A DNA stretch of 64,000 bases from Fibrobacterota bacterium (GTDB taxonomy: Bacteria > Fibrobacterota > Fibrobacteria > UBA5070): NCBI GenBank assembly GCA_029557215.1, contig JAKPQQ010000222.1, positions 18,481 to 82,480 of the forward strand, given 5' to 3'. The notes under the pieces are model-generated. The model did not search any database. It was given only the letters and a program-made list of their open reading frames with translations, and had not been told where the DNA came from. Shown here in pieces: positions 47,211 to 52,314 of this stretch. The position numbers were made by a program, and so were the translations under genes. Each line of letters begins with the position of its first letter. Positions within the stretch are counted from its first letter, which is position 1.

Positions 47211-49643
47211 TCAGGCGCCCAGTTCGCGCTTGACGCTTTCCGACGAAGGGAACCCGCCCTGGGCGAGTTCTTCGGGACGCCCGGCGAACAACACCCGGCC
47301 GCCTTCGCGCCCCGGCCCGGGCCCGAGCTCCACCACGTGGTCGCAACGCGAGGCGAGAACCGGATCGTGGGTGATGGCCACAACGGTGTCGCCGGAGGCC
47401 AACAGGTCGTCGAACACCGACCCCAGCTTCAGCGTGTCCAGAGGGTGGAGCCCTCGCGAAGGCTCGTCCAGGATCCAGAGTGTGCGCTTGCGCGAGCCCG
47501 CTCCGCCGACCGCCGACGCCAAGCGCAGGCGCAAGGCTTCGCCGCCCGAAAGCGAATCCGATCTCCGGCCCGGCGACAGATGCCCCAGTCCCGCCGCGCA
47601 AAGGCGCCCCAGCAATCCCCCCAGCTTGGCGTGGTTCGCGAACAATCCGCGCGCGGCTTCCAGGTCCAGGTCCAGCACATCGGCGATGGACAAGCCCTTC
47701 CAGCGCACGGACAGCGTCTGGGCGTCGAACCGGGCTCCGTTGCAGCGCGAACACGGCGTCCAGGCGTCGGGCAGCAGGTGCAACACCACCTTCTCCTCGC
47801 CGATGCCTCCGCAGGTCTCGCAACGCCCGCCCTTGGCGTTGGGGGAAAACCGCGAGGCGGTCCAGCCGCGCACCTTGGAATCGGGCAGGGCGGCGTAGAG
47901 CGTGCGCAAGTCGTCGAGCATGCCGGACAGCGTCGCCACGGTCGATCGCGGCGAGCGGACCCATTCCCCGCCCGGCTCGACCACCGCCACGTCGTGCAGT
48001 TCGCCTTCCACCGAAATCGAGGCGAACGGAAGGGGGTCGCCGCTCCCCGACAATTTCCGCTTCAAGGCCGGGGCCAAGGTGTCCAGCACCAGGGAACTCT
48101 TGCCCGCGCCGGAAACGCCCGTCACCGTCGTGAAGCACCCCAGCGGGATCTCCACGTCGGCCTCGCGCAGATTCCGTCCACATGCGCCCCGCAGGACCAC
48201 GCGCCCCTTCGCGGCCAGGCGAGGCCGCGCGGGCGGGCGGGCGGCACCCGAAAGCCACTTCCCCGACGGCGTGGGGGCCGCGGCCATCGCCGACGGCGAT
48301 CCCGCGTAGAGGATCCTTCCACCCGCGCGTCCGGGCCCCGGACCGGTCTCGATCACCGCGTCGCTTCGATCCAACGACCTCAGGTCGTGCTCCACCACCA
48401 CCAGGGTGGCGCCCTGGTCGCGCAGGCGGGAGAGCAGGGCGTGGACGGGCGGCAGATCGCGGGGATGCAATCCCGTGGTCGGCTCGTCCAGCACGTAGGC
48501 CAGCCCCGAAAGCGGTGCACCCACCAGCGCACCCAGACGGGCGCGACGTTCTTCCCCCTGCGACAACGACTCGGCCGGGCGTCCCAGCGGCAGGTAACCC
48601 AGCCCGAGGTCGTCGAGGACTTCGGCCCGCCGACGGATCTCGTCGACCAGTTCGGCGCAAGGCCCCTGCGCGAGCGACTCCCACTCCGAACCCTCCAGCG
48701 TCGCGCGGACTTCCGCCACATCGCGCCCCGAAAGATCGACAAGCGAAACCCCGCCGATCCGGAACCATCCGGCTTCTTCGCGCAGACCGGATCCCGCGCA
48801 GGCGGAGCACGGCACCGCGCCATCCGCCCCGGCGCCCTTGCAGACAGGGCAATGCCCCTGGACGCTGCGGCGCGAGAACAGGGACGGCGTGGGGCGCGGG
48901 GCGGTTCGGCCCGTGGCCAGGCAGCGCGGAACCCCCGAGACGGAAATCGTCTTTTCCGATCCGGGCTCCCCGATCTCCAGCGAACAAAGATCGCCACCCA
49001 ACCGGTAGGCGGTCAGGACCGCCTCGGCCAAGCGCACGGCATGGCGTTCCTGGGCTCGCAACCGATCGACCACGATCCGCAGGCCGTCCAGCGGCGCATC
49101 GGGATCCAGCCGTTCCAGCTCCAGCGATTCGCGCCCGAGGGCGCCACGCACGAACCCTCTGCGCACCCACGGCCCGGGACAGGTTTCGTCGGGCCGGAAC
49201 AGGATCCGGACCTTCTCGTCCGGCGCCTCGCGAAGAACCTTCTCGGCCACTTCCGGCGCCGACAACCCTTCCATCCGCTCTCCGGTGGCCGGAGAAACCG
49301 GCACGGAAGCGGCTGCCCACAGCGCGACCAGCGGCTCGTGCAGCCCCGCCAGGCTCGACAGCGTCGCCCACGGCCCGGACTCCGACGTTTCCTGTCGCAA
49401 GGCCGCGGTGGGAACCAGCCCCGTGGCGGCGTCCATGGGGGGGCGCGCCATGGCGTCGGACAGGCTCCGCCTCCACGCGGGCAGGGTGGAAAGCCATCTG
49501 CGCTCGGCCTCGGCGTGGAGCGTGTGGAACACGAGACTCGTCTTCCCGGATCCCGAAACCCCGCAGACGGAGGTCCACTTCCCGATCCCGAACTCGGCGT
49601 CGACGGATGCCAGGTTGTGGGTCCGGACGCCGCGCAGCCTCAT
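47211..49643 (-). CDS. UvrA2-like (class II UvrA paralog) ABC ATPase lacking the canonical UvrB-binding region
   Basis: 810 aa from ATG M170 of ORF 47211..50150 (the N-terminal 169 codons overlap the upstream RR gene in another frame); [20 protein letters not shown], two ABC signatures (LSQGEERRARL, LSGGEALRLRL), zinc fingers CPVCKGAG..CSACAGSG and CETCGGIG..CSRCNGARF; N-terminal module strongly diverged. Confidence 0.8.
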   Translation of the reverse strand: MRLRGVRTHNLASVDAEFGIGKWTSVCGVSGSGKTSLVFHTLHAEAERRWLSTLPAWRRSLSDAMARPPMDAATGLVPTAALRQETSESGPWATLSSLAGLHEPLVALWAAASVPVSPATGERMEGLSAPEVAEKVLREAPDEKVRILFRPDETCPGPWVRRGFVRGALGRESLELERLDPDAPLDGLRIVVDRLRAQERHAVRLAEAVLTAYRLGGDLCSLEIGEPGSEKTISVSGVPRCLATGRTAPRPTPSLFSRRSVQGHCPVCKGAGADGAVPCSACAGSGLREEAGWFRIGGVSLVDLSGRDVAEVRATLEGSEWESLAQGPCAELVDEIRRRAEVLDDLGLGYLPLGRPAESLSQGEERRARLGALVGAPLSGLAYVLDEPTTGLHPRDLPPVHALLSRLRDQGATLVVVEHDLRSLDRSDAVIETGPGPGRAGGRILYAGSPSAMAAAPTPSGKWLSGAARPPARPRLAAKGRVVLRGACGRNLREADVEIPLGCFTTVTGVSGAGKSSLVLDTLAPALKRKLSGSGDPLPFASISVEGELHDVAVVEPGGEWVRSPRSTVATLSGMLDDLRTLYAALPDSKVRGWTASRFSPNAKGGRCETCGGIGEEKVVLHLLPDAWTPCSRCNGARFDAQTLSVRWKGLSIADVLDLDLEAARGLFANHAKLGGLLGRLCAAGLGHLSPGRRSDSLSGGEALRLRLASAVGGAGSRKRTLWILDEPSRGLHPLDTLKLGSVFDDLLASGDTVVAITHDPVLASRCDHVVELGPGPGREGGRVLFAGRPEELAQGGFPSSESVKRELGA

Positions 49644-49648
49644 TGGAA

Positions 49649-50606: not shown

Positions 50607-51373
50607 CGTTTGCGTCCGAACGCCTCCACGAACGCCTGCGCCCGGTTCTTGCGGGGCGCGCCGCCCAGGATCCCCTCCTGGCCGTCGAACTTCTCTTCGA
50701 TCACGATCCCGCCGTCGGCGATGCGGTAGCGGCGGATGTCGGTGGCGTGCTTGGAACCCCGCATCTTCAGGACCAGCATGGCCTTGGAGACGGCGCTTTC
50801 CAGTTCCACGTAGCGCAGCACGATGAACGAATCGACCACGAAGGGCGATCGGCTGATCGAATTGGTGTCGCCCAGGAGGTTGCCGTTCTCGCGCAGGAAG
50901 ACGGCGGTGCAACCTTCGCGTTTGAACGCGGAAACGAGCCTGAACTCCATGTCGCGCAGCTGGAAGCTGTCGTCGGTGAGGAACTCGAAATGGCTCAGGC
51001 TGTCCACCACCACGCGCTTGATGCAGAATTCCTCGATCTCGCGCTCCAGATCGCCGTCGATCTCCTCCAGCGACTGGAGAAGTTCCATGGGGGTGGTGAA
51101 CCGGATGCGAAGCCGTCCTTCGGCCTCGTACTTGCGAAGATCCCACCCCATGCGCGCGGCGTCGTTGTAGAGCTGCGCGGGGAATTCCTCGAAGGTCACG
51201 TAGAGTCCGGCCTCGCCCCGCTCCTCGATGCCCTTGATCAGGAACTGGAGGCCAAGCGTGGTTTTCCCGGTTCCCGGCGCACCTTCGACGAGGTTCGCCG
51301 AACGCTCGACGAATCCACCGCCGGTCATGCGGTCCAGTCCTTCGATTCCCGTGGCGATCCTGGTCAAGGGCAT
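50603..51373 (-). CDS. KaiC/RadA-like RecA-superfamily ATPase (single KaiC-type domain)
   Basis: 256 aa; SD gggagg 6 nt upstream; IATGIEGLDRMTGGGFVERSANLVEGAPGTGKTTLGLQF (Walker A), Walker B VVVDSL; similar to KaiC N-domain / Rad55-like proteins. Confidence 0.75.
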   Translation of the reverse strand: MPLTRIATGIEGLDRMTGGGFVERSANLVEGAPGTGKTTLGLQFLIKGIEERGEAGLYVTFEEFPAQLYNDAARMGWDLRKYEAEGRLRIRFTTPMELLQSLEEIDGDLEREIEEFCIKRVVVDSLSHFEFLTDDSFQLRDMEFRLVSAFKREGCTAVFLRENGNLLGDTNSISRSPFVVDSFIVLRYVELESAVSKAMLVLKMRGSKHATDIRRYRIADGGIVIEEKFDGQEGILGGAPRKNRAQAFVEAFGRKR

Positions 51374-52314
51374 CACAGCCTCCCGGTGGCTCGGAACAAT
51401 CTGCGGATCACGGCCTTCTGGGCATGCAGGCGGTTCTCCGCTTCGTCGAAGCAGACGCAGCGTTCCCCGTCCATGATCTCGTCGGTGATCTCTTCGCCGC
51501 GGTGGGCGGGAAGGCAATGGGTGACCAGCGCCTGGGACCCCGCCGCCGACAACAGGCCGGCGTTGATCTGGTAGGGCAGGAAATGTCCGGCCTTCTGGTC
51601 CTTCTGGCCTTCCTGGCCCATGGACACCCAGACGTCGGAATACAGGAAGTCGGCGCCGCGCACGGCTTCCTTGGGGTCGGTCACGGCCTCGAACCGCGTG
51701 CCGCGCTTCTTGAATTCGGGCAGGATCTGGCGCACGAAATCCACCGGCAACTCGAACCCGTCCGGGCAGGATAGCACGAAATTCATTCCGCAGAACGCGG
51801 CGAGTTCGGCCAGCGACCTGGCCACGTTGTTGCCGTCGCCCACGAAGACCAGCGTGAGCCCTTCCAGGTTGCCGCGGTGCTCGCGGGCCGTGAGCCCGAA
51901 GGCCAGGGCCTGGCACGGGTGCGACACGTCGGTGAGGGCGTTGACCACCGGAACGCGGGCGAGCTTGGCGAGGCTTTCCACCAACTCGTGCGAGAAGGTG
52001 CGGCAGACCAGAACGTCCAGCCAGCGCTCCAGGTTCCGGGCGACGTCGGCCAGGCTCTCGCGCTTGCCGATTCCGATGGTGCCGGCGTCCAGCTGCAGGG
52101 CTTGCCCGCCCTTCTGGTTCATGGCGACTTCGAACGTCACCCGGGTGCGCAACGACGGCTTCTCGAAGTAAAGCGCGGCGGTGCGGCCGGCGAATTCGGT
52201 GTCGGGACCGTTCTGGCGCAGGCGCGCCTTCTGGGCCGCGGCGTCGTCCAGCAGTTCGTGGACGGCCTGTTCGCCCAGCGGCAGAAGGTCGATGAGGTCT
52301 TTCTGGAGGTTCAT
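51373..52314 (-). CDS. argF: Ornithine carbamoyltransferase-family enzyme
   Basis: 313 aa; SLRTR carbamoyl-phosphate motif, HPCQ, HCLPAHRGEE; stop overlaps the KaiC-like ATG by 1 nt (TGATG). Confidence 0.85.
   Translation of the reverse strand: MNLQKDLIDLLPLGEQAVHELLDDAAAQKARLRQNGPDTEFAGRTAALYFEKPSLRTRVTFEVAMNQKGGQALQLDAGTIGIGKRESLADVARNLERWLDVLVCRTFSHELVESLAKLARVPVVNALTDVSHPCQALAFGLTAREHRGNLEGLTLVFVGDGNNVARSLAELAAFCGMNFVLSCPDGFELPVDFVRQILPEFKKRGTRFEAVTDPKEAVRGADFLYSDVWVSMGQEGQKDQKAGHFLPYQINAGLLSAAGSQALVTHCLPAHRGEEITDEIMDGERCVCFDEAENRLHAQKAVIRRLFRATGRL

Follow-up and report, generated by a model that had tools for sequence, protein, structure and literature searches.

Organization of the operon

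The 64-kb window analyzed here (64,000 nucleotides of contig JAKPQQ010000222.1 from a Fibrobacterota bacterium) contains, at positions 47211–52314, six consecutive minus-strand genes. In order of transcription they encode ornithine carbamoyltransferase (argF), a single-domain KaiC-family ATPase, two small membrane proteins that we call TM1 and TM2, a stand-alone CheY-like receiver (REC) and a UvrA-like paralog (Table 1). The genes, their order and their coordinates agree with an earlier note made from the DNA alone, and Pfam and NCBIfam models confirmed the families; for argF, the assignment rests on NF001986 (364 bits, cutoff 306), TIGR00658 (340 bits, cutoff 281) and domains PF02729 and PF00185. 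As that note had suspected, the combination is not that of a described system: no Pfam, NCBIfam or PADLOC system matched it, and our literature searches turned up neither a KaiC-TM1-TM2 module nor any class of stand-alone UvrA proteins lacking both the insertion domain and the first zinc finger (Zn1).

Successive genes overlap or nearly touch at every junction. From argF to the UvrA-like gene, the junctions are TGATG (−1 nt), ATGA (−4), ATGA (−4), TAGTG (−1) and a gap of +5 nt (TGA-TTCCA-ATG); the four overlaps are those previously proposed, while the final gap is 5 nt and not 3 nt as first given. Re-annotation of start codons does not remove the overlaps, as the boundaries are identical in independent gene calls on the Logan, ENA and JGI assemblies of this organism, which comes from anaerobic-digester metagenomes. 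The sole alternative start of REC, ATG 49987, would delete the strand bearing the acidic DD pocket, and GGAGG lies 6–10 nt before both the KaiC-like ATG and the REC GTG.

The spacing is maintained in the window's clade, hereafter clade A, which we defined by a KaiC identity of at least 70%. In ten further clade A genomes, the argF-KaiC junction ranges from −1 to +2 nt and the TM2-REC junction from −1 to +4 nt; KaiC-TM1 and TM1-TM2 are both −4 wherever measured (L008 left out), and REC-UvrA-like ranges from −8 to +25 nt (eight loci). Every junction in the eleven clade A loci thus falls inside −8 to +25 nt. Within the 18.7-kb homologous locus L001, two of the eight other same-strand gene pairs also overlap by 4 nt, and since such overlaps are common in the genome, the five tight junctions in a row mark an ordinary operon, not an anomaly.

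A scan of 46800–53300 for the sigma-70 promoter consensus found none, and terminator-like sites showed no excess (6 versus 4.6 in shuffled sequence), both scans being uninformative for this phylum. We infer that the operon promoter lies in the spacer between argF and a divergent SpoU-type methylase gene. At the distal end, the UvrA-like gene and a plus-strand CBS/CorC_HlyC gene converge with 3 nt between their stop codons (47207–47211), leaving no room for an intergenic terminator after the UvrA-like gene. The same 3-nt convergence recurs in L001, and the two genes overlap in L007 and L009.

Table 1. Genes and sites of the operon and of the tandem uvrA locus in the window
Feature	Position	Strand	Description
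argF (ornithine carbamoyltransferase)	51373–52314	-	313 aa; first operon gene; stop overlaps KaiC-like start by 1 nt
Single-domain KaiC-family ATPase	50603–51373	-	256 aa; PF06745 4e-55
TM1 membrane protein	50331–50606	-	91 aa; three predicted transmembrane helices; no known family
TM2 membrane protein	50023–50334	-	103 aa; three predicted transmembrane helices; no known family
REC, stand-alone CheY-like receiver	49649–50023	-	124 aa; GTG start; PF00072 9e-24
UvrA-like paralog	47211–49643	-	810 aa; TIGR00630 577 bits
Spacer, inferred operon promoter region	52315–52416	.	~100 nt, argF to divergent SpoU-type methylase gene
Tandem uvrA	1978–7368	+	1796 aa
Receiver gene beside tandem uvrA	1218–1760	-	181 aa; divergent
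Hybrid kinase gene beside tandem uvrA	7462–9765	+	PAS-HisKA-HATPase-REC
Perfect palindrome TGCTCAATTGAGCA	1925–1938		14 nt; ~40 nt upstream of tandem uvrA start

Conservation of the KaiC-TM1-TM2 core in two phyla

A scan of one genome per GTDB species with the KaiC-like protein yielded a best 80 loci at 49–94% identity, all but a handful of which belong to Fibrobacterota (Fibrobacteria and Chitinivibrionia) or Chloroflexota (mainly Anaerolineae). The tallies below combine the scan loci with loci fetched earlier, and rest on tblastn and heuristic calling by simple open reading frame (ORF) rules; a regular expression for TM2 missed the clade A variant HSWGWL, which tblastn finds. Close UvrA-like and KaiC-like homologs are labelled as Fibrobacterota or Fibrobacteria metagenome-assembled genomes. 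All six genes stand together in homologous loci with differing outer flanks, the order being intact in L007, L009 and L008 (UvrA-like identity 58%, 56% and 43%, respectively).

Among the 56 Fibrobacterota loci, argF precedes the KaiC-like gene in 49 of 50, TM1 and/or TM2 was detected in all 53 with enough flank, and a receiver follows TM2 in 49 of 50, with a second receiver in 23 of 48. The flanks comprise argF, a SpoVG/ribosomal-protein block and uvrA. Where at least 4.7 kb of downstream sequence was available (n = 39), 17 loci carry a canonical uvrA (~943 aa, with an insertion domain of ~125 aa), eight carry a UvrA without the insertion domain, all of them in clade A, and 14 carry none. The translational coupling of UvrA that was drawn from the window does not extend to most Fibrobacterota, where a full-length canonical uvrA lies some 60–900 nt from the second receiver gene, REC2, as measured between tblastn hits. 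REC2 is a distinct protein (TDIAMP.MDGYEF ... LMTGFGYNP.HT ... LFKPF) that sits between REC1 and uvrA in 17 of 17 canonical-uvrA loci (for example, L012 8754–9215) and is absent from the window's clade.

The Chloroflexota loci (31) have a different setting, in which argF, REC and UvrA were not found (argF in 0 of 25; UvrA in 0 of 21 with enough downstream flank). Their order is secA, a highly conserved ~125-aa protein, KaiC, TM1, TM2, usually a multi-GAF/PAS histidine kinase, and adenosine deaminase; the kinase, of GAF/PAS-HisKA-HATPase composition, is downstream in most loci. An upstream ORF of ~1000–2100 aa is present in 11 of these loci and was confirmed as SecA in both that were scanned. 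The ~125-aa protein (...FIKWDLVRFFYENP...EDRHFRVKAVYHIIRGMR), with secA directly upstream, is present in all Chloroflexota loci but missing from those of Fibrobacterota, and is placed immediately upstream of the KaiC-like gene in L011, L045, L048, L073, L092 and 26 others. It matched no Pfam family, and its winged-helix matches, which include HVO_A0114 and MarR_2, are weak but mutually consistent.

Across the two phyla, TM1 directly follows the KaiC-like gene in 83 of ~88 loci, the KaiC-TM1-TM2 spacing is tight in every clade, and KaiC identity is at least 49%. The module is found whole without UvrA in one Fibrobacteria clade, F. succinogenes, Chitinivibrio and all Chloroflexota loci. The conserved unit is KaiC-TM1-TM2 plus a signalling partner, with argF and uvrA as phylum-specific neighbours. 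The five-gene core proposed in the earlier note, from the KaiC-like gene to the UvrA-like gene, is conserved in only one Fibrobacteria clade; the unit that crosses the phylum boundary is the smaller one, KaiC-TM1-TM2 with its signalling partner.

The KaiC-like protein is a single-domain ATPase

The KaiC-like protein belongs to PF06745 (187 bits, cutoff 26.6). Across 12 diverse members, the GAPGTGKT Walker A motif, the FEE catalytic pair, the VDS of the Walker B motif and the KMRGS arginine-finger motif are invariant; the C-terminal tail is also conserved (AFVEAFG). The family profile aligned to clock KaiC structures at 5e-105, with the CI and CII domains aligning about equally, including the CII A-loop region, to the archaeal single-domain proteins PH0186 and PH0284 at ~1e-38, and to the FlaH structure 4yds at 5e-11. 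Models for ArlH/FlaH matched below their cutoffs (NF052589, 1.9e-8; NF004723, 1.2e-12).

The protein has one domain, and the two-domain clock KaiC models scored far below their thresholds (TIGR02655, 130 bits, cutoff 546; NF006799, 175 bits, cutoff 408). In the profile alignment to CII, the positions of the KaiC phosphosites S431 and T432 are occupied by P and F (...SRSPFVVDS... in the window), and no KaiA or KaiB family member was found among the called genes ~8–10 kb either side of the KaiC-like gene. From the invariant ATPase motifs and the replaced phosphosites, the protein is predicted to be a competent KaiC-type ATPase and not a two-domain, Ser/Thr-phosphorylated clock protein. Among bacterial single-domain proteins, it may perhaps be the nearest relative of clock KaiC. 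To our knowledge, KaiC-family ATPases beyond the cyanobacterial clock are abundant, and for most of them neither partners nor roles are known.

TM1 and TM2, a proposed membrane pair

Neither TM1 nor TM2 matched a Pfam, NCBIfam or PADLOC family, and searches with 15 members of the two families against Pfam and NCBIfam at lenient thresholds gave no consistent family. Judged from hydrophobicity and the positive-inside rule, both proteins are predicted to have three transmembrane helices and a probable N-out/C-in topology, with the conserved residues on the cytoplasmic side. TM1 carries the motif (I/V)A+FY..K.G ... GG ... MMGG+, of which the FY element, (I/V)..FY+.K(F)G across the family, falls in a predicted cytoplasmic loop. 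TM2 carries LS+RLG.A.K..P.Y ... RYW.WL..E, in which the LS+RLG loop is conserved and the C-terminal W.W(L) motif reads HSWGWL in the window and RYWSWL in most homologs.

An exhaustive HMMER search with the TM2 profile retrieved 197 clusters among 1.84 billion representatives, nearly all of them stand-alone proteins of ~100–120 aa. Three natural fusions of 215–220 aa were found with TM1 first (P0365, P0381 and P0402), and these Rosetta-stone proteins argue that TM1 and TM2 work together. A concatenated TM1+TM2 profile gave 14 matches in a 5.8-billion-protein index, with the word prefilter swamped by hydrophobic words.

The receiver and its signalling context

REC is a CheY-like receiver (PF00072, 84 bits, cutoff 30) with a complete acceptor set of DD8-9, D51, T81 and K104, of which the Asp, Thr and Lys are kept in 51 orthologues. 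The motif MVGLH..A..YITKPF on its α4-β5 face is specific to the family. The operon itself contains no HisKA or HATPase gene, and kinases are found elsewhere in the window, so that the classical two-component arrangement of a kinase beside its regulator does not apply. KaiC-REC fusions in Methanosarcinaceae, reported in PMC5847659, provide an independent link between KaiC-like ATPases and receivers.

The host is a motile Fibrobacterota of ~66% GC, and receiver domains are very dense in the window, with eight tblastn matches to the operon REC. In L001, genes for a CheY/CheA-like pair follow a few kilobases beyond the UvrA-like gene, and a flagellin gene of the window is at ~53.9–54.9 kb. Carbamoyl phosphate is an in-vitro phosphodonor for receivers and is also a substrate of the argF product; we considered it as a link between argF and the kinase-less receiver, but found it unsupported and did not adopt it.

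The UvrA-like paralog lacks the insertion domain

Against TIGR00630, the model for full-length class I UvrA, the UvrA-like paralog falls short of the cutoff of 730 bits (Table 1). It aligns to B. stearothermophilus UvrA over residues 26–303 and then 422–942, skipping the insertion domain: the stretch between the Zn2 cysteine pairs is shorter by ~120 residues, a linker of ~10 aa taking the place of the domain, and PF17755, which models it, was matched by none of 30 family members. The UvrB-interaction domain PF17760 was matched by 25 of the 30 (best 4e-11). Residues 112–238 aligned with the canonical UvrB-binding domain in hhalign with 98.5% probability at 16% identity, and they are placed with a predicted local distance difference test score (pLDDT) above 90 in an AlphaFold model of pLDDT 88.9 and predicted template-modelling score 0.81 overall. 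The best Foldseek matches of this model were 3uwx_A and 2r6f_A, class I UvrA structures that include a chain of the UvrA-UvrB complex (TM-score 0.86–0.87); UvrA2 and Ecm16 superposed more poorly (0.69–0.72).

The earlier note had described the paralog as a class II UvrA deficient in the UvrB-binding region, a description that these results contradict. With a UvrB-binding-type domain kept, the analogy to DrrC and anthracycline resistance has no basis either. Class IIa UvrA is defined by loss of the UvrB-binding domain and of the first zinc finger (PMC9328131), and it binds DNA through the insertion domain (PMC3025350). By its domain content, the present form matches neither class I nor class II as these sources define them.

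At Zn1, SPATG stands in place of the CxxC pair and a single Cys is left of the second pair; S117 and P118 are invariant. The Walker A, Walker B and signature motifs of both ABC sites are kept, as are Zn2 and Zn3, all of them invariant or nearly so in the 30 members. This invariance indicates that the paralog is under purifying selection and not decaying. It evolves faster than its neighbours, at 43–75% identity versus 72–94% for KaiC in the same genomes. An engineered E. coli UvrA, Δ290–400, cannot tell damaged from undamaged DNA and is impaired more in global nucleotide excision repair than in Mfd-dependent repair (PMC3025350). By analogy with this defect, the paralog probably discriminates damage poorly.

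A second UvrA locus, encoding a tandem protein, occurs in the window between a divergent receiver gene and a hybrid kinase gene (Table 1). Module 1 of the tandem UvrA is canonical, with PF17760 and a partial match to PF17755, and module 2, like the stand-alone 810-aa paralog, has neither an insertion domain nor the Zn1 cysteines. All of 200 neighbour-joining bootstraps placed module 2 with the paralogs of clade A, a grouping that could in part reflect long-branch attraction. Together with the shared insertion-domain and Zn1 deletions, it weakens, without overturning, the idea that the UvrA-like gene is a degenerated positional orthologue of canonical uvrA. Many proteins of 1100–1400 aa annotated as UvrA (P0047–P0120; Myxococcota, Polyangia, Steroidobacterales and others) align with the whole 810-aa query without a break at the insertion domain, and most lack PF17755; modules without the insertion domain thus seem, from these alignments, to be widespread inside longer UvrA-like proteins.

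The palindrome ahead of the tandem uvrA, which has no other perfect copy in the window, resembles what we take to be the Fibrobacter-type LexA box (TGCNCN4GTGCA), and may mark SOS control of the tandem uvrA and not of the operon. No LexA-like box of this form was found within the operon, ahead of it, or between REC2 and uvrA in other Fibrobacterota. The window does hold three UvrA modules with two-component genes beside them, as had been pointed out, but this adjacency carries little weight where REC domains are so dense.

PADLOC identified no defence system in the operon. Its matches were generic, with the C-terminal half of the UvrA-like protein hitting mad3 (2e-44) and REC weakly hitting SduA and PD-T4-6; the KaiC-like protein, TM1 and TM2 had zero matches. 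We do not take the mad3 match as a sign of a defence component, since it reflects generic similarity among UvrA-type ABC domains.

A proposed membrane-tethered KaiC switch and its alternatives

On balance, we favour a model in which the operon encodes a membrane-tethered KaiC-family switch that feeds two-component signalling, with argF and uvrA as co-transcribed, phylum-specific neighbours. TM1 and TM2 would build a heteromeric membrane platform, whose conserved cytoplasmic loop and tail motifs would dock a single-ring, ATPase-competent hexamer of the KaiC-like protein. The loss of the S431/T432 phosphosites and the lack of kaiA and kaiB in the operon suggest that this protein would act as an ATP-driven conformational switch instead of a phospho-oscillator. 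The state of the switch would be read or set by two-component proteins. In Fibrobacterota, this partner would be the phosphorylatable CheY-like receiver, with its kinase encoded elsewhere, and in Chloroflexota the weakly winged helix-turn-helix (wHTH)-like ~125-aa protein, usually together with the multi-GAF histidine kinase. In clade A, the fast-evolving UvrA paralog is a clade-specific, presumably co-expressed addition to this core. Its expression would be stoichiometric with that of the receiver, and it would be expected to bind DNA and hydrolyse ATP while, as argued from the Δ290–400 mutant, recognizing damage poorly.

Several observations weigh against this model. TM1 and TM2 have short, variable periplasmic loops, the receiver might belong to an unrelated pathway, and the wHTH matches of the ~125-aa protein are sub-threshold (DUF7342, 3.9e-5; 3r0a, 0.005). 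Phylum was read from record titles, with two loci labelled 'Bifidobacteriales' and three labelled 'uncultured bacterium' placed by their architecture. In addition, the adjacency of argF and uvrA in both Fibrobacterota classes and the tight REC-UvrA coupling of clade A exceed usual random synteny, and a functional tie to UvrA therefore has to be kept in consideration.

Such a tie is central to an alternative that we consider unlikely, though it is the one the earlier note had put forward: an integrated, signal-controlled DNA-damage or genotoxin module, in which the receiver, possibly with the KaiC-like protein, directly regulates or recruits a UvrA paralog that, having lost its own domain for damage discrimination, needs a partner for targeting. 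Of 39 Fibrobacterota loci, 25, from both classes, have a uvrA after the module, but 14 of the 39 and all 21 Chloroflexota loci with enough downstream flank have none. Where the gene is canonical, it lies ~60–900 nt from REC2 and is probably the housekeeping copy. In clade A, the REC-UvrA-like junction stays within −8 to +25 nt in every locus despite differing outer flanks. The paralog itself retains a confidently folded domain of the UvrB/Mfd-binding type that could be re-purposed, with Zn1 lost and 16% identity to the canonical domain. Its need for a partner would resemble transcription-coupled repair, in which Mfd spares UvrA the task of recognizing damage. UvrA lacking the insertion domain is relatively more effective once a partner delivers it to DNA (PMC3025350). 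Against this stand the missing LexA-like box near the operon, the perfect palindrome being found ahead of the tandem uvrA instead, and the failure of the class II/DrrC analogy on which the proposal was founded. A signal-controlled DNA-damage module in the window's clade is possible, but it is not the parsimonious reading.

Somewhat less probable, in our judgement, is synteny without shared function, that is, a vertically inherited 'uber-operon' of unrelated core genes (arginine synthesis, a small regulatory ATPase, a receiver and nucleotide excision repair) whose co-transcription would reflect nothing more than a stable housekeeping setting, and in which the UvrA paralog is a decaying or neofunctionalized copy, redundant beside the tandem UvrA. 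The module is wedged between housekeeping genes in both phyla (argF, the SpoVG/ribosomal block and uvrA in one; secA and adenosine deaminase in the other), 4-nt overlaps are common genome-wide, and the paralog outpaces its neighbours (43–75% versus 72–94% identity for KaiC). Inheritance of gene order alone, however, fits poorly with a KaiC-TM1-TM2 order and spacing that survive across two phyla while the surroundings change, with the fusion of TM1 and TM2 in some genomes, and with the invariance of the paralog's Walker, signature, Zn2 and Zn3 residues in 30 members.

An extension of the switch model, which we regard as doubtful, holds that KaiC-TM1-TM2 is a previously unrecognized, phylum-wide membrane KaiC device converting a membrane or energy cue into two-component signalling, and that in clade A its receiver recruits or licenses a damage-blind UvrA. 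If true, UvrA action there would be signal-targeted and not damage-targeted, akin to Mfd-directed repair but driven by a phosphorelay.

Highly improbable, finally, is a motor or transport device in which a RecA-fold hexamer energizes a small membrane channel or secretion step with the receiver as its on/off input, as in the comparison cases of ArlH/ArlI/ArlJ of the archaellum and the ring ATPases of secretion systems: the ATPase site is fully competent, there are two dedicated membrane subunits, secA lies immediately upstream in each of the Chloroflexota loci inspected closely, and ArlH and FlaH are weak relatives (NF052589, 1.9e-8; NF004723, 1.2e-12; 4yds, 5e-11). Two three-helix proteins whose external loops are very short could, however, build no more than a minimal channel, signalling or DNA-binding proteins are the conserved partners and not substrates or pore parts, and similarity to clock KaiC (5e-105) far exceeds that to ArlH/FlaH (5e-11).

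A membrane-tethered switch feeding two-component signalling remains our preferred reading of the operon. The module is compact and highly conserved, with two dedicated membrane subunits and obligatory signalling partners, and it offers a tractable entry to non-circadian KaiC function and possibly to the single-domain ancestry of the clock protein. The UvrA-like form, for its part, is a natural counterpart of an engineered mutant that loses damage discrimination, which raises the question of how it is targeted to DNA.

Comparison with known systems

The UvrA-like paralog shares with class II UvrA proteins (D. radiodurans UvrA2, DrrC and Ecm16) its occurrence as a stand-alone paralog beside a canonical-type UvrA, the loss of Zn1 and the retention of both ABC sites. 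Its domain content is nevertheless the reverse of theirs, as it retains the UvrB-binding-type domain and has lost the insertion domain, and it does not lie in a biosynthetic cluster. Short UvrA paralogs should therefore not automatically be called 'class II' or 'DrrC-like'. E. coli UvrA Δ290–400 has the same removal of the insertion domain between the Zn2 cysteine pairs; it is, however, a laboratory class I construct that keeps Zn1 and a functional UvrB interface, and it serves here as an analogy only. Module 2 of the tandem UvrA shares both derived characters with the paralog: a P.TG motif stands where the Zn1 cysteines would be, and the deletion of the insertion domain has identical boundaries. 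That module differs in being fused behind a canonical module and in being 46% identical to canonical UvrA, compared with ~35% for the stand-alone paralog.

The archaeal 'signal-transduction hub' ATPases of the KaiC-like type, among them ArlH/FlaH and the KaiC-REC fusions of Methanosarcinaceae, are also single-domain and occur in association with wHTH proteins, receivers and PAS/GAF kinases. The window's family is bacterial, however, and its similarity to the archaeal proteins is lower than to clock KaiC; we know of no description of TM1/TM2 partners for the archaeal families. With cyanobacterial KaiC, the window protein has in common the RecA-fold ATPase, the same Walker A motif, catalytic Glu pair and Arg finger, and genomic ties to kinases or receivers. 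It differs in having one domain instead of CI and CII, P and F in place of S431 and T432, and no kaiA or kaiB in its operon. Two dedicated membrane subunits are present here and none in the clock, and the hosts are non-photosynthetic anaerobes. The switch proposed for the core of the window's operon would parallel the cyanobacterial output pathway, in which KaiC communicates with SasA/CikA and RpaA.

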